Position numbers and translations under genes: made by a program. Below are positions 3,287-48,578 of a stretch of 56,973 nt of DNA, one piece after another (the first letter of the stretch is position 1; each line of letters opens with the position of its first letter). This DNA comes from Thermostichus sp. DRC_bins_24 (lineage in GTDB: Bacteria; Cyanobacteriota; Cyanobacteriia; Thermostichales; Thermostichaceae). The DNA lies in NCBI GenBank assembly GCA_039794845.1, contig JAUQVK010000094.1, positions 1-56,973 of the forward strand, in the 5' to 3' direction. The notes beneath the pieces are model-generated. The model saw only the letters and a list, made by a program, of their open reading frames with translations, ran no database searches and was not told where the DNA came from.

Positions 3287-3602
3287 TTCTGGTACTGTCC
3301 AATGCTGATTCCAGTATTGAAGGCGTGAAATAAAACACCAATAGTGATAATACGGATTAGCAGCTTACAAAAGTTGTCTTTGATGCTGGAAATGTGAAGT
3401 CTTGCTAAGGTGGCTTAACAGTGTTCGCTCCCTTGGGTCGTAAACTCAGGAATTCCAGGATTCTCTTTTCATCAGAGGGGTGAAGTTGACGCCTATCGTC
3501 TTGAAGACAAAATTAACCCAGTTGCACCTCCCAGGTGCACCAGCACATCAAATAGAATGTAGCTTTTAATACTTATCGAAATATTCTGCAGATTGCTTGA
3601 GG

Positions 3603-3896: not shown

Positions 3897-4005
3897 ACAC
3901 ACCGACTCTGAGCCCTCGCCTTAAAGAAAAGCTCAAGCATAAACAGCCCTCGAGATAATAACGATAGGATTGCCATGCAAGAATTCTGATGCAGAGAGTT
4001 TTGCT

Positions 4006-4713
4006 ATGCCCCTGTCTTGGCTGGATTTCACCATTCGCCTGGGGGTTGCCTTTACCCTGGGATCCTTAATCGGCCTGGAGCGACAGTGGCGACAACGGAT
4101 GGCCGGCCTACGTACCAATACCCTGGTGGCAACAGGTGCAGCTTTGTTCGTCATGCTCTCGGTTCTCACCCCGGATGAGGGCAGCCCGACCCGCATTGCC
4201 GCCCAGGTGGTATCGGGGGTCGGCTTCTTGGCCGGTGGGGTCATTCTTAAGGAAGGAGCCACTGTACGGGGTCTGAACACCGCAGCCACCATCTGGTGTG
4301 CCGCAGCGGTGGGAGCTTTTTCTGGAGCAGGTTTTTTTCTGCAGGCCACGATTGGCGCCGGGGCGGTGTTGATCTCCAATGTTCTGCTGCGCCCCCTTGG
4401 GTATCGCATCAATCAGCAACCCCTGAAGGGCACAGAACTGGAATTGGTTTACGAGTGCTCCTTTACCTGCAAATGCCATGAGGAAGCCCATGTCCGAGCC
4501 TTGTTGCTGCAGGGGATAGCTCCCAGCCATTTGAAGTTGCGGGCTCTCCACAGCACCGATCTGGAAGAAAAGCCCGATTTGGTGGAAGTGGAGGCCGAAA
4601 TGGTAACCCAAACCCGCGATGACCAGTCTCTGGAGCAGATCGTCAGCCGCCTGAGCTTAGAACCCGGGGTGATCGCTGCCAGTTGGCGGATCATCGAACA
4701 AGAGTTTGGATAG
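4006..4713 (+). CDS. mgtC: MgtC/SapB family protein with C-terminal ACT-like domain
   Basis: IGLERQ, AGLRTNTLV, RIAAQVVSGVGFLAGG and GLNTAATIW motifs. Confidence 0.93.
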   Translation: MPLSWLDFTIRLGVAFTLGSLIGLERQWRQRMAGLRTNTLVATGAALFVMLSVLTPDEGSPTRIAAQVVSGVGFLAGGVILKEGATVRGLNTAATIWCAAAVGAFSGAGFFLQATIGAGAVLISNVLLRPLGYRINQQPLKGTELELVYECSFTCKCHEEAHVRALLLQGIAPSHLKLRALHSTDLEEKPDLVEVEAEMVTQTRDDQSLEQIVSRLSLEPGVIAASWRIIEQEFG

Positions 4714-6604: not shown

Positions 6605-7573
6605 ATGCGGATTGTCTTTTTCGGTACGCCAGCATTTGCCCTGCCCTCTCTGCAGATCCTCCTGCAACGACCGGAGTTCGAAGTGGTGGGGCTGGTTTGT
6701 CAGCCGGATCGGCCCCAGGGGCGGGGGCAGAAGGTGATCCCCCCCGTTACAAAAGTCTTGGCACAGTCCTATGGGATCCCGATTTGGCAGCCGACTCGTT
6801 TACGGCGGGATGCAGATGTGTTAGCAGCCTTGAGCTCTTCAGCAGCCGATGCGTTTGTGGTGGTGGCCTATGGCCAGATTTTGCCCCCAACCGTGTTGCA
6901 AATGCCGCGGTTGGGTTGTGTGAATGTGCACGGATCCCTGTTGCCTGCCTACCGGGGGGCGGCACCGATTCAGTGGGCCATTGCCCATGGAGAAACCGAA
7001 ACAGGGATCACCACCATGCTCATGGATGAGGGCATGGATACAGGGGCGATGTTGCTCAAGGCCAGCCTGCCGATTGGGCCCGACCAGACGAGCGTAGAAT
7101 TGGCACCCCAATTGGCCCAACTGGGGGCAGAACTCTTGGTGGAAACCCTGTTGAAACTGGAAAAAGGAGAATTGACCCCGATTCCCCAAGAGGGATCCCT
7201 GGCCAGCTATGCGCCCTTGTTGAAAAAGCAAGATTTTCTTCTGGATTGGAGCCGCCCCGCTCAAGCCCTGCACAATCAAATTCGTGCCTTCTCCCCTCAG
7301 TGCTTCACGGGTTTGGGGGGGCAACGGCTCAAGATCATCCGTTCCGGCTCACCCCAACTGTATCCTCCTCCTCCAGAAATGCCCAAAGGGAACCCCGGAG
7401 AAGTGGTGGGCTTGGCCAAGGGAGAAGGGGTTTACGTGGCAACGGGGGAGGGATCCCTGTTGATTCAACGGGCCCAACTTCCCGGCAAAAAGGAACAGTC
7501 GGCTTGGGACTTGGTCAATGGAGGGCGGCTGGGGGTGGGCATGTGTTTCGAGGTGCCCACGGATTTTTCATAA
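6605..7573 (+). CDS. fmt: Methionyl-tRNA formyltransferase
   Basis: MRIVFFGTPAFA, QPDRPQGRG and NVHGSLLPAYRGAAPIQW. Confidence 0.97.
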   Translation: MRIVFFGTPAFALPSLQILLQRPEFEVVGLVCQPDRPQGRGQKVIPPVTKVLAQSYGIPIWQPTRLRRDADVLAALSSSAADAFVVVAYGQILPPTVLQMPRLGCVNVHGSLLPAYRGAAPIQWAIAHGETETGITTMLMDEGMDTGAMLLKASLPIGPDQTSVELAPQLAQLGAELLVETLLKLEKGELTPIPQEGSLASYAPLLKKQDFLLDWSRPAQALHNQIRAFSPQCFTGLGGQRLKIIRSGSPQLYPPPPEMPKGNPGEVVGLAKGEGVYVATGEGSLLIQRAQLPGKKEQSAWDLVNGGRLGVGMCFEVPTDFS

Positions 7574-7636: not shown

Positions 7637-7870
7637 TCACTCTTTTTCAGGGCCCATCACATAGCAACCTTGCTGACGAAACAGCTGCTCCAAGGGCCAA
7701 AGGCAGTGGCCACAGCGGATCCCAGACTGACAATGCACCCGCATCGCCTCCTCGAAAGGCAAGGGATCCCGTTGCTGGCGGCTGAGGATCTCGGCGTGCT
7801 CGGTTTCACTGCAGTAGCAGTAGGCGGGTCGGCGAGGGGGTGGGCGGCGACGGGAGGCAGAGAGGGTCAT
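7637..7870 (-). CDS. Small BFD-like [2Fe-2S]-binding protein
   Basis: CYC...CGHC spacing typical of BFD-type ferredoxins; starts 14 bp after the ferritin-like gene. Confidence 0.65.
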   Translation of the reverse strand: MTLSASRRRPPPRRPAYCYCSETEHAEILSRQQRDPLPFEEAMRVHCQSGIRCGHCLWPLEQLFRQQGCYVMGPEKE

Positions 7871-7884
7871 GGGCAGGCTGTTTT

Positions 7885-8583
7885 TTAGCTTGAGAGGGTC
7901 GCCAGTTTGCGGTTGAATGCCGCGATCGCCTTCGATTCCAGCTCCGCCACCTGGAGGGCGTAGTGACGGGCGCGGGCCTTTTGTTCATCAGTGACGCAGT
8001 AGCGGCTCAAAATCTGACGGCCCAAGTTGAGGTGAAAGCGCTCATCCGGCATGATCTTGCGCATCGTCTTCTGCAGATCGGGCGGCAAATGGGGCAAAAT
8101 GCTCTCGAAACTGCGGCAAGCCCCCGATTCTCCGGCCAAGTTGTGGGCGGCCAAGCGGGAAATGGTATCCGTCAGGGATCCATAGAAAGTTTCCACCCAA
8201 GCTTTGATCTCCGGGATCGGCTCCCACTCCTGTAAAGAAGCCCCCATCGCCTCCAAATGGCGGTTCAACCAGCGAAAATGGTTACTCTCATCCTCAATCT
8301 GATGACAGAGCAGCACCAGGGCGTCGGTTTCCGGCGTATTCTGCAGCCACTTGCTGATGAACAGAATCGCTTGATATTCGTAGTAGGTTTGGAAGCTGAG
8401 CCACTCCACCAGGCGCTCCCGTCCCCAGGGCCGGATCTCTGCTTCCGGCGGGGCAAAGGCTTGTTCGCGGGCTTCTGTAAGGGCGCGGTTCCGGTGAGCC
8501 TCAAGTTCCGCCTCGATCTCCTGCACAAAGGTCGCCCAGTTGTAGGCGCTGGCTACATCCTCTGGAGATAAAGTTGCCGTCAT
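7885..8583 (-). CDS. Ferritin-like (carboxylate-bridged diiron) domain protein
   Basis: E...ExxH...E...ExxH pattern: YYEYQA, DESNH, AGESGA, DERFH. Confidence 0.8.
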   Translation of the reverse strand: MTATLSPEDVASAYNWATFVQEIEAELEAHRNRALTEAREQAFAPPEAEIRPWGRERLVEWLSFQTYYEYQAILFISKWLQNTPETDALVLLCHQIEDESNHFRWLNRHLEAMGASLQEWEPIPEIKAWVETFYGSLTDTISRLAAHNLAGESGACRSFESILPHLPPDLQKTMRKIMPDERFHLNLGRQILSRYCVTDEQKARARHYALQVAELESKAIAAFNRKLATLSS

Positions 8584-9806
8584 TAGGGGATCTCCTCATT
8601 CACAGTTTCTACACCGACCCAGGCCGGTTGCCGACCTGCTAAGGGGGGCAGGGCATAGGGGGTATGGTCAATCTTCTGAAACCGACCGGCCCGACAAACG
8701 CCGCGGACTTTCAGCATCTGGCTAACGGATAACGTGCCGCCCCGACCATCGACCAATTCTGCCTCTTCTGCCACCAGCTCCGCCACCGTGAGATCCGCCT
8801 CTCGCCCCACCTGCAGGGATCCCAACTCGTCATTTTTTTGAATGGCCCGCGCCGCTGCACTCGTGACCGCTTGGATCACCTCCGGCAGGGTCAGGCCCAA
8901 GGCCAAAAACTTGCTCATGGTCGTGGCCAAATCCACCACGATCTCGGTGTTGAAAATGTTCAGATCGGTGGAGAGGGTGTGGGGGCGGATCCCTTGATCC
9001 AAGCCCAGGCGCGCCGTGTTAAAGGAAAAGTCGCTGCCGCTGTGGCCCACATCCAGCAAAACCCCCCGGTCTAAAGCCCGCCGTGCTGCCGGCAACAGGG
9101 ATCCCTCTGCATCGAACAGGCCAAAGCGCGGCTGATAGGTATGGGTGACAATATCTCCTGGACGCAGGCGATCCAACAAATCGGAGGGATCCAACACCCC
9201 ATCCATCGGGAAGCGGCCCAGATGAATCATGATCGGCAGATGATATTCCTCTGCCAAAATCAGCGCCGAAGCCAGGGTGGGGGATTCGGTTTCTCCGATC
9301 CTGACGGTGGGGCGAGCCTTAAAGCCGACGATGATCTCCCGCTGGTCTTCGATCACCTGCCGCGCCCGATCCAAATCCTGATTTTTCGGATCCACCGCAA
9401 AGCCCAGCCGATGGGCAATGAAATCGGAAGTGGCGATGTAGAGCAAAGACGGATCGATCAGCCCGTACACCCGCGTTTGGGCCCTCTGGGCCACGGTTTC
9501 TCGAAAAGCCGGAAAGGTGAGGGTGCCGGAAGTTCCCGCATCCACCACCGTGGTTACCCCAGAGCGGATCCCCACCTCATCCGCAGGCAGACAAAAGTCC
9601 CCCACAGACGTGAAGACATGGGTATGAATATCAATCCAGCCGGGGGTGAGGAGTTGTCCTTGCAAATCGATCACTTCCGCCCCAGCCACAGGCAAATGGC
9701 GCCCGATCGCGGCGATCTTTCCCTTTTCCACCCGCAGTTGACCGATCTCGTCCAGCCCCTGAGCAGGATCCAGTAAATGCGCATTGATAAAGAGGGTGGC
9801 AACCAC
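8583..9806 (-). CDS. Metallo-dependent amidohydrolase/deacetylase (dihydroorotase-like subgroup)
   Basis: PGWIDIHTH, GVTTVVDAGT, MIHLG, THTY, DVGH and STDL motifs. Likely GTG start at 9806 with GGAG upstream. Confidence 0.9.
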   Translation of the reverse strand: MVATLFINAHLLDPAQGLDEIGQLRVEKGKIAAIGRHLPVAGAEVIDLQGQLLTPGWIDIHTHVFTSVGDFCLPADEVGIRSGVTTVVDAGTSGTLTFPAFRETVAQRAQTRVYGLIDPSLLYIATSDFIAHRLGFAVDPKNQDLDRARQVIEDQREIIVGFKARPTVRIGETESPTLASALILAEEYHLPIMIHLGRFPMDGVLDPSDLLDRLRPGDIVTHTYQPRFGLFDAEGSLLPAARRALDRGVLLDVGHSGSDFSFNTARLGLDQGIRPHTLSTDLNIFNTEIVVDLATTMSKFLALGLTLPEVIQAVTSAAARAIQKNDELGSLQVGREADLTVAELVAEEAELVDGRGGTLSVSQMLKVRGVCRAGRFQKIDHTPYALPPLAGRQPAWVGVETVNEEIP

Positions 9807-9846
9807 TATAACTCCGTCCAGCAAAGCATTTGACCTGTTGTTTCGT

Positions 9847-9889
9847 AAGATAAAGCACTTTTTTCTTGCAATCTGTAGACCCGGCTACA
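9847..9889 (-). promoter_or_regulatory. Putative NtcA-activated class II promoter
   Basis: TGTA-N8-TACA at 9874-9889, then exactly 22 nt from the GTA-N8-TAC core to a TAN3T -10 box (TATCTT, 9852-9847) on the minus strand. Confidence 0.65.
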
Positions 9890-9936
9890 GAATCCCGGGC
9901 TGACAGGCCAACAATCTGAGCTTTGGAAATGGGATA

Positions 9937-9965
9937 CATCCCCTTCAGGGCGGGGAGGATGTCAA
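9937..9965. mobile_element. IS200/IS605-family end remnant
   Basis: CCCTTCAGGGCGGGGAGGATGTCAA is a subterminal hairpin ending in TCAA, typical of cyanobacterial IS605 ends. No tnpA or tnpB is present. Confidence 0.65.
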
Positions 9966-10039
9966 CGTGATGCCTGCTACATCTGCCGTTCCGGCGAACA
10001 GGCTCTAATATTGGGATGGTTGTTCCAGGAGCTACCTTC

Positions 10040-12976
10040 ATGACCTCTTCTCCCCGCCTGACTGCCGCAGAGCGGACTGTAAGTTCTACCAACGGGCTGG
10101 AGGAGACCCCCCTGCTTATGGAGCGGGATCCCTTGGCCCATCCGCTCCAGGTAGGCGAAGCTCTCACCCTGGGAAACAGCCTGTTGAATCGGCGGCTGCA
10201 ACTGGTGGAAGAACTGTGGGAATCGGTGCTGCTGCAGGAGTGCGGGCAGTCGCTGGTGGATCTGTTGCAGCGGCTGCGTTCCATGTGTTCCCCCGAGGGA
10301 CAAGCCCTGGAGTATCCGGTGCCGGAGGTGCTGCAGATCGTTGAGTATCTCAGCCTTGATGCCGCCATCCAAACCGCCCGTGCCTTTGCCCTGTTTTTTC
10401 AGCTCATCAACATTGTCGAGCAGCACTACGAGCGGGCGGAAGTCTCCGATATGCGCATGGTGGATAGTCAGCGGCGCACCGTGCGAGAAAACGAAAAATT
10501 TGAGCGGTTGTTTCCCTATCTGCGCGCCCAAGGGGTACCGCCAGGTCTGCTGCGCAAGCTGCTGGAGCAACTGCACATCCGTATGGTGTTTACCGCCCAC
10601 CCCACCGAGATCGTCCGCCACACCATCCGCGAAAAACAACGGGCCTTCTCCCGCCTGCTCAGCCAACTGGACTGGGCGGAACAATCCCAACCTCTGCAGG
10701 CCCAGATCCTCAAGGAGCAACTGGCGGAAGAAGTTTTGCTCTGGTGGCGCACCGACGAATTGCACCAGGCCAAGCCGACGGTGCTCAACGAGGTGGATTA
10801 CACCCTGCACTACTTCGAAGAGGTACTGTTTCAGGCCATTCCTCTGCTACACGAGTCCCTCAGCCGCAGCCTGAAAAACTCCTTTCCCCACCTGGATCCC
10901 CCCGCTGCCGGCTTTTGCAACTTCGGCTCCTGGGTGGGATCCGACCGCGATGGCAACCCCTCCGTGACGGCAGATGTTACCTGGCAAACGGCCCGCTATC
11001 AACGCAATTTGATCCTGGGCAAGTACATCGAATCGGTGAAAGCCCTCACCAAAACCCTGAGCATTTCCTTGCACTGGGGGGATGTGGACAGCCAGCTTCT
11101 CGATGCCCTGGAGCAGGATCACCGCCTACTGCCGGAGGTGTACGAGTCCTTTTCGTTGCAATATCGCCAGGAACCCTACCGCCTCAAGCTCAGCTACATC
11201 CAACGGCGGCTGGAACTGACCCGCGAGCGCAACCGCCACCTGGCAGATTCCGCCTGCTTGCCCGCCCCCCCACCCCTGGCCAACGCCTACGCCAATGCCG
11301 AGGAGTTTTTGGCGGATCTACAGCTGATTCAAAAAAGCCTGAAAAGCAGTGGTCTGGCCTGTCGGCAGTTGAACCACTTGATCCAGCAGGTGGAGGTGTT
11401 TGGGTTTCATCTGGCCCATCTGGATATTCGCCAAGATAGCAGCTACCACGAAGCCGCCCTGACGGAGATCTTTGACTACCTGCGCATTTTGCCCCGCCCC
11501 TACAGCGAACTGCCTGAGGCGGAAAAAACTGCTTTTCTGTTGCAGGAACTGCAAACCCGTCGCCCGCTGTTGCCCCTTGAGATCCCCTTTTCGGAAAAAA
11601 CGGCAGAATGGATTGCCACCTTCCGCACCCTGCGCCGCCTACAGCAAGAATTTGGCCTGGCCATCTGCCAAACCTACGTGATCAGCATGAGCCGCCAGAT
11701 CAGCGACCTGTTGGAGGTGCTGCTCATGGCCAAGGAGGTGGGCCTCTACGACCCAATTAGCGGTCAGGGATCCCTGGCAGTGGTGCCTCTGTTTGAAACC
11801 GTAGAAGACCTGAAACGGGCCCCAGAGGTGCTGCGGGGCCTGTTGGAAATCCCCTTTTACCGGCAGTATCTAACTCAGCAGGGGGATCTGCAGGAGGTGA
11901 TGCTGGGCTATTCCGATAGCAACAAAGATTCTGGCTTTTTAAGCAGCAACTGGGAGATCTACAAAGCCCAACAAATGCTGCAACTGGTGGCGGAATCCTA
12001 TGGGGTGAAGTTGCAGATCTTCCATGGTCGGGGCGGATCCGTCGGTCGCGGGGGGGGCCCAGCCTACGAGGCGATCTTAGCCCAGCCGGGGCGCAGTGTG
12101 GGTGGACGGATCAAAATTACCGAGCAGGGGGAGGTGTTGGCCTCTAAGTATTCCCTCCAGGATCTGGCCATTTTCAACCTGGAAACCGTGACCAGTGCCG
12201 TGATCCAGGCGAGCCTGCTGCGCACCTATCCCAACGATCTCCACGAGTGGTCCCGCCTGATGGAGTCTCTGGCGGATCGTTCCCGGCAGGTCTATCGGGG
12301 CTTGGTCTACGAGCAGGAGGGGTTTGTGGAGTTTTTCCACGAGGTCACCCCAATCGAGGCCATCAGCCAGCTGCAGATCAGCTCCCGTCCCGCCCGGCGC
12401 AGTGGCAACCAAAAGGATATCGGATCCCTGCGGGCCATTCCCTGGGTGTTTAGTTGGACCCAAAGCCGCTTTCTGTTACCCGCCTGGTACGGGGTGGGCA
12501 CCGCCCTGCAGGAATACGTGGCCAAGGGGGAGCACAACCTCAAGCATCTGCAACACCTCTACCGTGAGTGGCCCTTCTTCCGCATGGTGATCTCGAAGGT
12601 GGAGATGACCCTGGCCAAGGTGGACCTGCAAATCGCTCGCCACTACGTGCGGGAGATGAGTTCTCCGGAACGCCTAGAACGGGCGCTAGAGCTGTTTGAG
12701 CGCATCGCCGACGAGATGTATCGCACCCGGGAGATGGTGCTGCAAATTACGGGGCACAGTGAGCTGTTGGATAACGATCCCTACTTGAAGCGCTCGGTGC
12801 AGCTGCGCAACCGCTCCATTGTGCCCTTGGGCTTTATTCAGGTTTCGCTCCTCAAGCGCCTGCGAGAAAACCAGGGATCCCGCAGCAGCCGAACGCGCTA
12901 CAGCCGCTCTGAACTGCTGCGGGGGGCGATGCTCACCATCAATGGCATTGCCGCCGGGATGCGCAACACGGGCTGA
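10040..12976 (+). CDS. ppc: Phosphoenolpyruvate carboxylase
   Basis: [35 protein letters not shown] and C-terminal GMRNTG. Confidence 0.98.
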
Positions 12977-33936: not shown

Positions 33937-34932
33937 TCAGGGCACGGTGAACTGGGTTTGGCTGTTGCCCCGTACCTGAGCAGTGCTGGTTTGCCAATCG
34001 AGAAGGGCCTCGTTACCACTGACGGTCAGGGTTTGGCCCGGCTGTCGGTAGCGCACATTGCCTCTGGCTTGCAACTGGGTGGAACCGATGCGCCAGCGGA
34101 TCTCTTCGGCTTCCAGTTCTTGTCCCGTTTGTTCGGCCAGTCCCTTCACCTTCTCCAACAGATGCAGCTCTGTAAAGGGCACCTGAGTGCGCAACTGCCC
34201 TCCGCTCAGGCGCAGGGCGTGTTCGGGGGCATACACCGCTACGGATCCAAGGGCCTGCACTTCTCCAGAGGCGATCTGCCAAAGGAACCGGGTGGCTGAG
34301 AGTTCCAAGTCGGGATCCCGATAGTTGGCTTGGACAGGCCGCCCGGGGTCGAGGTTGTCCAGTTGCATTTGATCTTGGCCAAAGTCGATGGTGAGGCGAT
34401 CCCCCCGCAGGGATCCCTGCTGATCGAGCAGCTTAATCTGGACTTGCCCGTGGGCCCGCAAGAGGCGCTCCTCCGGCAGCCATTCCACCTGTTCGGCTTG
34501 CAGGCGCAGGTTATCCCGTTCCGATTCCACTTCCACTTGGCCCCGCAGTTCCAGCCGACGTTCGCTCGGGTACACGGAGCCCCGTTCGGCCCGGGTACGG
34601 ATGGCGCGGTTGTCTTCGTCAAAAAATTCCCCTTGGATCGACTGCAAATGGGCGGATCCCAAGCGCACCTCAGCACCGGTGTCGTTGCCCCCATTCGCTT
34701 CGTATTCCGCCAGACGGGCCTGTAAGCGCCACAGGATCCCGCCATCCGGTTTGGCTTCTGTGAGGGTGATGTCTTCGTAGATCAACTGCGGCGTGGAAAT
34801 CGGCTCCGGATCCCTGACCTCCTCTGGGGGCGGCACTTCTAGCCCACCACACCCCACCGGCCCGCTCACCACGGCCAACAGCCCCAATGTACGTAAACAG
34901 TGACTTAAACAGTTGCGGTTGAATGGTTGCAT
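33937..34932 (-). CDS. lptC: LptC-like LPS export periplasmic protein
   Basis: Lipoprotein-type signal peptide and repeated beta-jellyroll segments (LWRLQA, ARGNV). Confidence 0.75.
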   Translation of the reverse strand: MQPFNRNCLSHCLRTLGLLAVVSGPVGCGGLEVPPPEEVRDPEPISTPQLIYEDITLTEAKPDGGILWRLQARLAEYEANGGNDTGAEVRLGSAHLQSIQGEFFDEDNRAIRTRAERGSVYPSERRLELRGQVEVESERDNLRLQAEQVEWLPEERLLRAHGQVQIKLLDQQGSLRGDRLTIDFGQDQMQLDNLDPGRPVQANYRDPDLELSATRFLWQIASGEVQALGSVAVYAPEHALRLSGGQLRTQVPFTELHLLEKVKGLAEQTGQELEAEEIRWRIGSTQLQARGNVRYRQPGQTLTVSGNEALLDWQTSTAQVRGNSQTQFTVP

Positions 34933-35048
34933 CGTTCTCCCCTTTCATCCCCTCATCGCCACCATATCCTTTGGCCCTACCCATACGGGATCCCGCCCTG
35001 GCCGAACCCATGGCATCATCAGTGCAACGTCGTTTCAGGGGCACCAGC

Positions 35049-35906
35049 GTGACCCAACTGTTGCAGCTTCTCATCTATGGCCTCGTCTTGGGCAGCATTT
35101 ACGCCTTGGGGGCAATCGGAGTTTCCCTCACCTTCGGCATTTTGCGCTTTGCCAATTTTGCCCATGGGGATCTCATGACCTTGGGGGCCTACTTCTGTCT
35201 CAGCTTTGTGTCTCTGGGTTGGCCGATTGGGGTAAGTTTGATCCCGGCAGCCCTGGCCACAGCACTCTGCGCCGTCGTCACCGATCAGCTGATCTATCGA
35301 CGCTTACGTCGGGAAGCCCCGGTGATCTTGCTCATCTCCTCCTTTGGCACCGCCCTTATTTTGCGCAGCTTGGTGCAGATCCTTTGGGGCCCCAACAACC
35401 AGGTGTACCGCAGTGGTATCCAACTGCCTTGGCGATTCTGGGGGCTGCGCGTCAAACCCGACTGGGTGGCGATCTTGCTGGGGGCAACCCTGTTGGTGGT
35501 GGCGCTGCACTTCTTTTTGCAGCGGACCCGGGTGGGCAAGGCAATGCGAGCCATGGCGGACAATTTTGATCTGGCCAAGGTCACCGGCATTGACACAGAG
35601 CGCATCATTCTCTGGACATGGGCCATTGGGGCTGTGTTGGCCTGTGCAGCAGGCATGTTTCTCGGCCTGGATACCCGTCTACACCCGACGATGGGCTGGC
35701 GGCTGCTGTTGCCGGTCTTCGCAGCGGCGATTTTGGGGGGGATTGGTCGCCCCTACGGAGCAATTGCCGGCGGGTTGGTGATTGGCATTGCGGAGGAACT
35801 CTCTACGTTGGTGATCAGCCCAGCCTATAAAACGGGGGTGGCCTTCGCCATTTTGGTGGTGATGTTGATCCTCCGGCCCACGGGACTGTTTGGAGGGCGG
35901 GCCTGA
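35049..35906 (+). CDS. Branched-chain/neutral amino acid ABC permease (LivH/NatD-like)
   Basis: GSIYALGAIG, NFAHGD, GKAMRA and AAILGGIG. Confidence 0.92.
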   Translation: MTQLLQLLIYGLVLGSIYALGAIGVSLTFGILRFANFAHGDLMTLGAYFCLSFVSLGWPIGVSLIPAALATALCAVVTDQLIYRRLRREAPVILLISSFGTALILRSLVQILWGPNNQVYRSGIQLPWRFWGLRVKPDWVAILLGATLLVVALHFFLQRTRVGKAMRAMADNFDLAKVTGIDTERIILWTWAIGAVLACAAGMFLGLDTRLHPTMGWRLLLPVFAAAILGGIGRPYGAIAGGLVIGIAEELSTLVISPAYKTGVAFAILVVMLILRPTGLFGGRA

Positions 35907-36859
35907 TGCTGAGCTACGGCATTTTCTTTTTGATTTTGGTCGGAATCTACGGCGTGTTGGTGCTGGGCCTCAATTTGCAGTGGGGCTATGCCGGCATGTT
36001 CAACATTGGGGTGGGCGCCTTTTTCGCCGTGGGGGCCTATGCCAGTGCCATCGTCACCACTCCCCTGAGCGGCGACCATTTGGGTGGGTTCGGCATGCCC
36101 TTTTGGGTGGGGTTTTTAATGGCTTTGGCGGCAGCCGGATCTATCGCCTTCTTGATTGGTCTAATTACCCTCAGGCTACGCTCCGATTACTTGGCCATCG
36201 CCACCATTGGTATTGCCGAAATTATCAGCCAAATCCTGAGAAATGAGGGCTGGCTTACCAACGGCGTACGCGGCATTACCCGCATTCCCCGTCCTTTTCG
36301 TGGCTGGATCCCGGGGCAAGATACATTGCTCTACTTGGGTTTGGTGCTGCTGGTTTTGCTGCTGGTGTACTGGGCCAGTGAACGGGCCTATCGATCCCCC
36401 TGGGGGCGGGTGTTGCGGGCGATTCGGGAGGATGAACCGGCGACGATGGCGGCGGGCAAAAGTGTGTTGAAATTCCGCCTGCAGGCGTTTGTGCTGGGAT
36501 CCATGATCATGGGGTTGGCGGGGGCTCTCTACGCTCATTTTGTCAATTTCATCAGCCCGGAAGCCTTTCAGCCGGAGTTTGCCACCTTCATCGTTTGGGT
36601 GATGTTGATCGCGGGGGGCAGTGGCAACAATCGCGGTGCTTTGCTGGGGGCGTTGGTGATTTGGGGGGTGTGGTCGGGGAGCGAACTCTTGACCAACCGT
36701 CTGCCAGCCCAATGGACGACGCGGGCAGGCCCTCTGCGCATTTTGCTCATCGGCGTCCTGCTGCAAGTTATTCTTCTGACCCGCTCCCAAGGGTTGTTGC
36801 CAGAACGTCCGCCAAAGCCGATTTTGGATACCTCCCGCAACCGGGATCCGGCAGGGTAG
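35906..36859 (+). CDS. Branched-chain/neutral amino acid ABC permease (LivM/NatC-like)
   Basis: GLNLQWGYAG, LRSDYLAIAT and SPWGRVLRAIREDE. Confidence 0.92.
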   Translation: MLSYGIFFLILVGIYGVLVLGLNLQWGYAGMFNIGVGAFFAVGAYASAIVTTPLSGDHLGGFGMPFWVGFLMALAAAGSIAFLIGLITLRLRSDYLAIATIGIAEIISQILRNEGWLTNGVRGITRIPRPFRGWIPGQDTLLYLGLVLLVLLLVYWASERAYRSPWGRVLRAIREDEPATMAAGKSVLKFRLQAFVLGSMIMGLAGALYAHFVNFISPEAFQPEFATFIVWVMLIAGGSGNNRGALLGALVIWGVWSGSELLTNRLPAQWTTRAGPLRILLIGVLLQVILLTRSQGLLPERPPKPILDTSRNRDPAG

Positions 36860-47504: not shown

Positions 47505-47729
47505 AGCCTACCTTCTCGTTGTTGTTTGCTTCCTTGTTGGCTTTGTCCAGGCCGCGTTTGTCGTTGCGGCTTGGAGCACTTTGAATCTACCACCGACCCG
47601 ATTTTTGACCCCAGACCCGCCTGAGAACTGTAATCTTTCGTAGCAGACTCACCCTGGTTGGAGAGGGATCCGGAGGCACCCTGTGAGTCACCATGGAAAC
47701 AAGTGACATCCGGAAAAGGAACCGCACAC

Positions 47730-48578
47730 ATGGCCCGATGGTCACTCCATCCCAGCTCTCAGTCCGGCGCCCGGATTCTGTTGATCCCGACGGCTTTTGG
47801 CACCGATACCCAAGCGCCAATGGCGATTCTCAACGCCGGTTCCGAGCTGTGTGCCTTCGAACCGAAATTGGGGATCGATGTGGATGGGCTAGCGGTGGCG
47901 CAGTTGCCGGGGTTGGTGGATGAACCTCCCTACAGCATGTGTGAAGCGGCAGTGGCCCAGGCTTGGCGACGACAGCAATGGCCGGTGCTGCTGCCCTCGG
48001 TGTTGTCGGCAAGTTGGGGGGCGATTCGGGCCCTTTGGAAACATCACCCCAGCTTGAGCGTGGTGCATTGCAGTGCCCATGCCAACCTGATGCCCTCTCC
48101 CGAAATGATTCAGCCCGATCAAGATCTGGGCTACGGCAGCGCCGCTTGGGTGGAGTTGCTTTACCAGCATAAAATGCCCGTGGTGCATGTGGGGTTACGC
48201 AGTGGCAGTGCCCGCGCTTATGAATGGCTGCACAATCACCAGAGCCCGGTCTTTTGGGCCCAAGATGACTGGGATCCGCAGCAGGTGGTGGAAGCCCTGC
48301 CGGATGAGCCGGTGTTTTGGGTGTTGGATTGCGGCGTTTTGGATCCCTCGCTGGTGGAGGCGGTGCATCATCCAGAGCCGGGGGGCATGAGTTGGGGGCA
48401 ACTGTTACAAACCTGTGAGGCAGTTTTCGCCGCCCGGAATGTGGTCGGTCTGTCTCTGGGGGGAGTTGCGGTGGGATCCTCAACCCGACAAACCGCTCGT
48501 ACCGTAGCCCGCCTACTGAATTGGCTACTGGCTTGCCATGGCCGTTATGCTGCTGTCCCTCACCCGCAATCGGCCTAG
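47730..48578 (+). CDS. Arginase/agmatinase-fold protein with degenerate metal ligands
   Basis: AILNAGSEL, VHCSAHANL, HVGLRS, LDCGVLDP and PEPGGMSW. Confidence 0.8.
   Translation: MARWSLHPSSQSGARILLIPTAFGTDTQAPMAILNAGSELCAFEPKLGIDVDGLAVAQLPGLVDEPPYSMCEAAVAQAWRRQQWPVLLPSVLSASWGAIRALWKHHPSLSVVHCSAHANLMPSPEMIQPDQDLGYGSAAWVELLYQHKMPVVHVGLRSGSARAYEWLHNHQSPVFWAQDDWDPQQVVEALPDEPVFWVLDCGVLDPSLVEAVHHPEPGGMSWGQLLQTCEAVFAARNVVGLSLGGVAVGSSTRQTARTVARLLNWLLACHGRYAAVPHPQSA

Follow-up and report, generated by a model that had tools for sequence, protein, structure and literature searches.

Gene layout

The DNA analyzed here is a 56,973-nucleotide stretch (the window) corresponding to contig C94 of a 3.5-Mb cyanobacterial genome, Thermostichus sp. 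DRC_bins_24, whose closest relatives, as named in the source records, are Synechococcus sp. Nb3U1 and Thermostichus vulcanus. Our subject is a set of three minus-strand open reading frames (ORFs) located between the convergent gene fmt (6605–7573, plus strand) and the divergent gene ppc (10016–12976, plus strand), together with a predicted promoter of the type activated by the nitrogen regulator NtcA. In the order of transcription, the three genes encode an amidohydrolase (8583–9806), a 232-residue protein with diiron-carboxylate ligands (7885–8583), and a 77-residue Cys-rich protein (7637–7870). An earlier note, drawn from the letters of this sequence, had described these genes as an NtcA-driven operon in which an oxygenase and a hydrolase release nitrogen from an amide or N-heterocycle. 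Our analysis supports that reading, and nothing that the note had named as speaking against it was found where this could be checked in silico.

The linkage of the genes can be read directly from the sequence, as the note had it. The TAA stop codon of the amidohydrolase gene shares one base with the ATG of the diiron gene (TAATG at 8583), and 14 nt (7871–7884) separate the diiron ORF from the 77-residue ORF. The longest amidohydrolase ORF extends to a TTG at 9824; however, the true start is probably the GTG at 9806, which is preceded by GGAG, because orthologues align from residue 7. A search for Rfam riboswitches in 14 loci, including this one, gave no match at the gathering score. The note had also placed an IS605 end beside the operon. 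There is none: the flanking genes are fmt and ppc, and the 40 window ORFs scanned, each at least 180 residues long, contain no transposase domain.

The encoded proteins

The HxH amidohydrolase, the E/ExxH/E/ExxH protein, and the CxC...CxxC protein that the note had listed are all present. The first carries the motif DIHTH and passes the cut-offs of the Pfam families Amidohydro_1 (54.6 bits, cut-off 25) and Amidohydro_3 (54.9 bits, cut-off 29.7). With the 413-residue ORF, it narrowly missed the NCBIfam model NF006689 (PRK09237, "amidohydrolase/deacetylase family metallohydrolase"), scoring 367.2 bits against a cut-off of 371. PDB entries 8wzy, 2ogj, and 2ics align with it over approximately 350 residues at E-values of 1e-49 to 1e-54, and these alignments preserve the motif columns for HxH, Lys, His, His, and Asp; we take these residues to form the binuclear metal site of the enzyme. 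Judged by these matches, the protein is a member of the amidohydrolase superfamily and of its cog3964 (EF_0837-like) clade, and is filed only under this broader clade rather than under the NF006689 equivalog. The known cog3964 proteins Atu3266 (2ogj), EF_0837 (2ics), and 8wzy share its motif columns but, unlike the window protein, none has been described with a diiron partner. Work by Ornelas and colleagues in 2013 reportedly found a cog3964 member to be a promiscuous deacetylase, with no physiological substrate. Our literature search for cog3964 returned citations only, and no paper was found for 8WZY/8JE0.

In the second protein, residues E69, E99-x2-H102, E152, and E181-x2-H184 are invariant in all 23 aligned family members. 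An AlphaFold2 model (pLDDT 88) places them on helices 55–81, 86–112, 154–165, and 168–195, so that the predicted structure shows the ferritin-like pattern of two E...ExxH sets on a four-helix core. Its best Pfam match is DUF455 (PF04305; residues 95–219, 25.9 bits, E 9e-6), which falls below the gathering cut-off of 34.3; the two are thus related by weak similarity, and the protein is not filed as a member. Precomputed annotations place the same domain on 24 of 26 close homologues, and neighbors in a protein atlas are partly DUF455. Among the literature matches listed, no function for DUF455 is described in titles or the openings of abstracts. A PDB search with the diiron profile found nothing significant (best E 0.06), and an exhaustive comparison with 1.84 billion cluster representatives returned 100 matches at E ≤1e-3 and 4 at E ≤1e-30. 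By these searches, the family is small and uncharacterized, and neither a solved structure nor a characterized member was found in them. Named homologues, other than those discussed below, are called "hypothetical" or "ferritin-like".

The overall fold of the model points in a somewhat different direction from the ligands. Its best whole-chain matches are heme-oxygenase-like proteins (3dde, HrmI, CADD, TenA, UndA, FlcD, and BesC), with Z-scores of 16–19 over residues ~14–232, while classical ferritin-like oxygenases (aldehyde-deformylating oxygenase, R2lox, and toluene monooxygenase) score 14–16 over residues ~50–232; helical bundles score high generically, which applies to both sets of values. 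In the heme-oxygenase-like matches, 193–213 residues align at a root-mean-square deviation (rmsd) of 2.7–3.3 Å and a sequence identity of 11–18%, and Foldseek E-values are ~6e-4 to 1e-3. AetD and PolF are also among the nearest folds, and by these scores the model has the seven-helix fold of the heme-oxygenase-like diiron oxidases (HDOs). These enzymes have a His-rich ligand motif in the third helix. The window protein shares the predicted overall fold with HDOs such as UndA, BesC, CADD, HrmI, and FlcD, but its invariant residues follow the ferritin-type pattern of ExxH pairs. With the ferredoxin-dependent diiron oxygenases (aldehyde-deformylating oxygenase, PaaA, R2lox, and toluene monooxygenase) it shares the arrangement (E-X29/30-E-X2-H)x2 on a four-helix core; however, there is no significant sequence similarity, and an extra N-terminal helical part brings the model closer to the heme-oxygenase-like fold. 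Consequently, the label "ferritin-like diiron protein" holds for the ligand motif and gives way for the overall predicted fold. The safe structural reading of the model is a four-helix diiron core that is extended at the N terminus.

The third protein has the Cys pattern CYC-x32-CGHC: C18, C20, C53, and C56 are invariant in all 11 sequences compared, as are C47 and C69. A Pfam scan assigned it to no family even at a maximum E of 10, so that Fer2_BFD was not matched, and a PDB search with its profile gave nothing significant. In a Foldseek search with its predicted structure, P. aeruginosa Bfd chains took ranks 1, 2, 3, and 5 (three of the five and four of the ten best rows), with TM-scores of 0.63–0.64, an rmsd of 2.4 Å, and E-values of only 0.4–0.8, which are to be expected for a protein this small. 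NCBI names one orthologue "(2Fe-2S)-binding protein". As to the earlier label "BFD-like", the resemblance lies in Cys spacing and predicted fold and not in a Pfam match; the protein is probably a BFD-like [2Fe-2S] electron carrier. The resemblance to the Bfd–bacterioferritin pair extends to the gene arrangement, in that a small C-x-C...C-x2-C protein whose model is nearest to Bfd is encoded beside a ferritin-superfamily protein. However, the partner here is not bacterioferritin (232 residues, with no Bfr or ferritin match), and the Fer2_BFD match is missing.

An NtcA-type promoter and its conservation

Upstream of the amidohydrolase gene, on the minus strand, lies the palindrome TGTA-N8-TACA (TGTAGCCGGGTCTACA, 9889–9874), with TGTA at 9889–9886, N8 at 9885–9878, and TACA at 9877–9874. 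It contains the GTA-N8-TAC sequence of NtcA class II promoters, and exactly 22 nt (9874–9853) follow TAC before TATCTT (9852–9847), a −10 box of the form TAN3T, as the note had reported. A consensus scan of the intergenic region between the operon and ppc found no sigma-70 −35/−10 pair. Because the box, the 22-nt spacer, and TATCTT occur without a −35 element, this looks like an activator-dependent promoter, and transcription would be expected to start near 9840. The known class II promoters of glnA and ntcA have in common GTA-N8-TAC in the place of the −35 element, 22 nt to TAN3T, and no −35 consensus. They differ in that the genes downstream of the promoter described here are not known regulon members and that its NtcA site is a predicted one. 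In this genome, glnA is preceded by GTA-N8-AAC-N22-TAGGAT, and NtcA itself is encoded (TIGR03697, 392 bits against a cut-off of 245). A genome scan with a strict pattern (25 matches) recovered the promoter of ntcA, which serves as a positive control, and also picked up several ABC-transporter and LysR genes.

How far such a motif exceeds chance depends on what is counted. The window contains five copies of GTA-N8-TAC where 1.95 would be expected, and a count of 5 was reached in 4 of 100 shuffles. Chance can thus account for the motif taken alone, though not for its position or for its conservation in orthologous promoters. Within the genus, we compared the six loci that hold the genes or their remnants (G000, G004, G008, G010, G005, and G006). 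TGTA and TACA are invariant in all six, while five of the eight N8 positions vary; the −10 box is kept as TAyCyT/TACTTT, and the flanks on either side of the block diverge. The ppc region was searched in five more congeners, one with a pseudogene (G003) and four with no trace of the operon (G001, G002, G007, and G009). In those four, the block of box, spacer, and −10 was not found upstream of ppc, and the ppc-proximal block is retained. G003 has an amidohydrolase pseudogene, and the promoter block was deleted along with the gene start. Outside Thermostichus, where the genes do not adjoin ppc, a related site, GTA-N8-CAC (CCGTAACA-N5-CAC; GTAACA-N5-CAC), stands just upstream of the amidohydrolase gene in three other cyanobacterial lineages (L011; L014 with the metagenome locus L030; L015 with L031). 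Here, the flanks cannot be aligned, and the sites lie 22 or 23 nt before TATCCT, TATTCT, or TAAGAT. The recurrence of the site in orthologous promoters, on which the note had made its reading depend, was therefore found in the genus and in three further lineages.

These data bear on the possibility that the box works for the divergent ppc gene, responds to a different regulator of the CRP family, or has no function, the three genes then being constitutive or otherwise controlled. In favor of this, the box is a palindrome located 127 nt before the annotated ppc ATG, G006 and G005 retain it although their operon has decayed or been reduced, and the motif occurs genome-wide at chance frequency. 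However, the box is kept together with the three genes and was not found in front of ppc in the four congeners searched that lack them, so it belongs to the operon and not to ppc. The other lineages, in which the genes are away from ppc, still have a related box at class II distance, and no −10-like hexamer is found at 22±1 nt on the side of the box that faces ppc. We consider this explanation unlikely.

Some further features of this region may be recorded. A second NtcA-like box, GTGATGCCTGCTAC (GTG-N8-TAC), occurs at 9967–9980 on the plus strand, 25 nt upstream of TAATAT (10006–10011, plus strand), a spacing that differs from the canonical 22±1 nt. Only 4 nt separate the end of TAATAT from the first ATG of the ppc ORF, so that ppc probably starts at the ATG at 10040. 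Most congeners have a related block, GTA-N8-(C/T/G)AC in the minus-strand reading, in front of ppc; of the four without the operon, three keep it, and in G001 it is largely deleted. Between the ppc-proximal block and the operon promoter lies a 45-bp segment (9921–9965) that is absent from the congeners. It was considered as a repeat or the end of an insertion sequence (IS) and ruled out as such, being single-copy in the genome, with no transposase domain in the scanned window ORFs; the promoter box is likewise not part of an IS element. In the Leptolyngbyaceae locus L014, a tandem array of heptamers (AGTGCTG/AGTGTTG units, ~4370–4450) stands directly upstream of the NtcA-like box, and the array is shorter in L030.

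Co-conservation and decay within cyanobacteria

The three genes are co-conserved, as the note had anticipated. The amidohydrolase gene stands directly upstream of the diiron gene in eight of the nine other genomes with an intact diiron gene, and the small gene directly downstream in six of the eight loci with readable downstream DNA. One exception to both is G005 (L010), where the amidohydrolase gene has been lost by a precise deletion, no small gene is present, and the promoter spacer carries a 5-nt insertion. The second exception, for the small gene, is Leptolyngbya FACHB-36 (L012), where that gene is not adjacent; the matches to the small protein include an orthologue assigned to this organism by NCBI.

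Across the genus and the phylum, the distribution is patchy. The diiron gene was found in five of 11 other congeners, intact in G004, G005, G008, and G010 and as a remnant in G006; G003 holds a further remnant, which this search missed. Only remnants or pseudogene fragments are left in G006 (L006) and G003 (L107). Elsewhere, the gene was found in one of 400 sampled genomes of the phylum, as a weak match, and orthologues in distant cyanobacteria are 66–77% identical. This sporadic distribution is that of an accessory and probably transferred module. The loci of the genus can also be arranged as a series of decay, from the reduced G005 through the fragments in G006 and G003 to four congeners (L108–L111) with a clean ppc flank.

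A few neighbors in the other cyanobacterial lineages are of metabolic types. A TRZ/ATZ hydrolase gene follows the three genes in L011, an MMSDH-type aldehyde dehydrogenase gene is divergent from them in L011, L014, and L030 (above the cut-off in L014 and L030), and a type III glutamine synthetase is encoded nearby in L014 and L030. In the genome under study, the xanthine dehydrogenase (XDH)-type gene (contig C33) and the MMSDH gene (C15) have unrelated neighborhoods without the box and give no information on the substrate.

The wider family in metagenomes

A metagenome scan yielded 72 loci with homologues of the diiron protein, 28–73% identical to it, and the family recurs in marine and soil metagenomes. 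By motif, 14 of the 72 homologues carry a rubredoxin-type C-terminal tail of ~70–78 residues (CxxCG...CxxC). Pfam Rubredoxin (PF00301, E ~1e-22) was confirmed in all five of the fused ORFs that were scanned, and the family member P0028 has the same tail. The fusion of an Fe–S domain to homologues is independent support for a redox-driven diiron protein, and it implies for this family an external Fe–S donor such as the ferredoxin-dependent diiron oxygenases use. By analogy, the separate small protein would take the role of the fused rubredoxin in cyanobacteria. The idea in the earlier note that the diiron protein needs electrons from an Fe–S protein thus gained support.

The pairing with an amidohydrolase also extends to metagenomes. 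Of the 57 loci in which 300 nt or more of upstream sequence are available, 25 have a gene for a cog3964-type amidohydrolase (40–47% identical) immediately before the diiron gene and in the same orientation; with 1300 nt or more, the figure is 19 of 38. In the metagenome loci whose ORFs were read, the amidohydrolase and diiron genes overlap by 4 nt. There is a second architecture, in which a TRZ/ATZ-type amidohydrolase gene precedes the diiron gene and a 2-oxoglutarate-Fe(II) oxygenase gene often follows it; tblastn matches at the corresponding positions were obtained in L038, L039, L046, and L073.

The neighboring genes suggest a context of purine/pyrimidine-type catabolism. In the 38 loci of at least 5 kb, several of which are near-identical copies so that the counts are not independent, we found as neighbors a TRZ/ATZ-type deaminase (25 loci), a 2-oxoglutarate-Fe(II) oxygenase (17), an XDH-family large subunit (14), an NMT1/THI5-type binding protein (10), and an HpxZ-like gene (4). 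Above the respective NCBIfam cut-offs are 8-oxoguanine deaminase (L052 and L072), the oxalurate catabolism protein HpxZ (L062), and cytosine deaminase PRK07583 (L058), while the XDH subunits score best with pucD, below its cut-off. ABC binding proteins and GntR/LysR regulators are also among these neighbors. This context sharpens the "amide or N-heterocycle" of the earlier note: the substrate class is most likely a nucleobase-derived or similar N-heterocycle, for which a purine, pyrimidine, pterin, or triazine-like compound would be candidates.

The family shows some variation of its own. The distant members P0040, P0048, and P0057 end in a conserved ...(A/F)PGC tail, and the Marinobacter-type members P0031 and P0039 have lost several metal ligands. 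In the marine locus L075, a second, divergent diiron paralogue (3976–4500, 29% identical to the window protein) is encoded just upstream of the amidohydrolase–diiron pair.

Interpretation

We propose, with moderate confidence, that the three genes form an NtcA-activated oxygenase/hydrolase operon that scavenges nitrogen from an N-heterocycle or cyclic amide. Gene order, translational coupling, the conservation of ligands and promoter, the Fe–S fusions, and the family context are seen in the sequences; the action of NtcA on the operon by binding and induction, the passage of electrons, the oxygenase reaction, and the class of substrate are inferences. The genes would be transcribed as a tricistronic message from an activator-dependent class II promoter, with the NtcA box in place of the −35 element. 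Under nitrogen limitation, a rise in 2-oxoglutarate would lead NtcA to switch the operon on. The binuclear-metal amidohydrolase may then open a cyclic amide or remove an acyl or carbamoyl group, and the small BFD-like [2Fe-2S] protein would reduce the diiron protein, which with O2 would hydroxylate or oxidize the same N-heterocycle or its ring-opened product. Through this oxidation, the nitrogen could become releasable as ammonium or urea.

Several observations weigh against this interpretation. Genome-wide, the full GTA-N8-TAC-N22 pattern is found at 12 sites, where base composition predicts 12.3. Within the genus, the spacer between the box and the −10 is conserved as well, so that conservation there could reflect low divergence or another factor, and outside it one half-site is CAC, unlike the TAC of the NtcA consensus. 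In L033, a cyanobacterial-looking locus at 66% identity, the amidohydrolase–diiron pair is present, the small gene is missing, and our search pattern found no box. The module is also dispensable, having been pseudogenized or not found in eight of the 11 other congeners searched. In the metagenomes, 31 of the 57 evaluable loci are without a cog3964 amidohydrolase, and one more has it in another arrangement only. In at least two of these loci, L040 and L066, a TRZ/ATZ-type amidohydrolase gene takes the upstream position instead, and L040 has all three genes of the second architecture. The nucleobase context comes from homologues that are only 36–51% identical (mostly 40–47%), and it is mostly absent from the cyanobacterial loci. 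Finally, JGI names some of the homologues "rubrerythrin", which leads to a different view of the diiron protein.

According to that view, the diiron protein would be a rubrerythrin- or ferritin-like protective or metal-handling partner, either reducing peroxide or serving an Fe-dependent amidohydrolase as iron donor or repair factor, and the small Fe–S protein would feed it as Bfd feeds bacterioferritin. Besides the JGI labels, the diiron-plus-rubredoxin architecture of the homologues mirrors that of rubrerythrin, and the nearest fold of the small protein is Bfd, the partner of a ferritin-like protein. There is also a weak match to Pfam Rubrerythrin (E 0.0048); however, its 17.7 bits are below the cut-off of 22.8, and no PDB sequence match to rubrerythrin or Bfr appeared at E up to 1. 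The best folds over residues 14–232 are heme-oxygenase-like oxidases and TenA, not ferritins. Moreover, tight translational coupling to catabolic amidohydrolases of two clades is more in keeping with an enzyme of a pathway than with a general protectant. We regard a protective role as improbable. A biosynthetic module that makes an N-containing secondary metabolite, as many HDOs do, appears very unlikely: the nearest folds include the biosynthetic oxidases HrmI, BesC, FlcD, UndA, AetD, and PolF and the distribution is sporadic, but the scanned flanks showed no genes for nonribosomal peptide synthetases, polyketide synthases, or tailoring enzymes, the neighbors are deaminases, XDH-type hydroxylases, HpxZ, ABC binding proteins, and GntR/LysR regulators, and a nitrogen-starvation promoter suits scavenging.

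A broader and more tentative proposal can also be made. The pair of amidohydrolase and diiron protein, with a rubredoxin or BFD-like protein, might represent an unrecognized, widespread O2-dependent step in the catabolism of nucleobase-type N-heterocycles, perhaps an alternative ring-oxidizing and ring-opening route beside XDH-type hydroxylases and TRZ/ATZ deaminases. Some cyanobacteria might have captured it under NtcA control, which would let them use exogenous heterocycles as a nitrogen source.

A regulatory logic of this kind is familiar, as are the protein superfamilies, while the diiron family, its pairing with amidohydrolases, and its reaction are not. The authors of the note did not recognize the three genes as a described pathway, and our full-text literature searches, with most subscription journals outside their coverage, likewise found no pathway of this composition. 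These searches combined diiron proteins with purine catabolism; NtcA with amidohydrolases and ferritin-like proteins; 8-oxoguanine deaminase, ferritin-like proteins, rubredoxin, and xanthine dehydrogenase; and heme-oxygenase-like and diiron proteins with amidohydrolases. NtcA regulons are well studied, and yet the operon belongs to no described pathway that we found. Identifying the reaction of the diiron protein would add an enzyme class to organic-nitrogen recycling and would tell us of a nitrogen source that hot-spring and filamentous cyanobacteria can use. For experiments, the conserved promoter provides a direct handle.

Other features of the window

At the end of fmt (7535–7573), overlapping its last codons and stop, there is a hairpin with a 7-bp stem (GTGGGCA/TGCCCAC) that is followed by GGATTTTTCA on the plus strand; it may act as the fmt terminator. 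No comparable run of T follows the hairpin on the strand of the operon, and the consensus scan for sigma-70 promoters does not list it. Four more GTA-N8-TAC palindromes occur in the window. Those at 3559, 23513, and 28308 sit between listed ORFs, and the one at 36266 is inside one of two adjacent BPD_transp_2 ABC permease genes (34923–36859). These permease genes and an arginase-family gene (47658–48578) are possible further nitrogen-related genes in the window.

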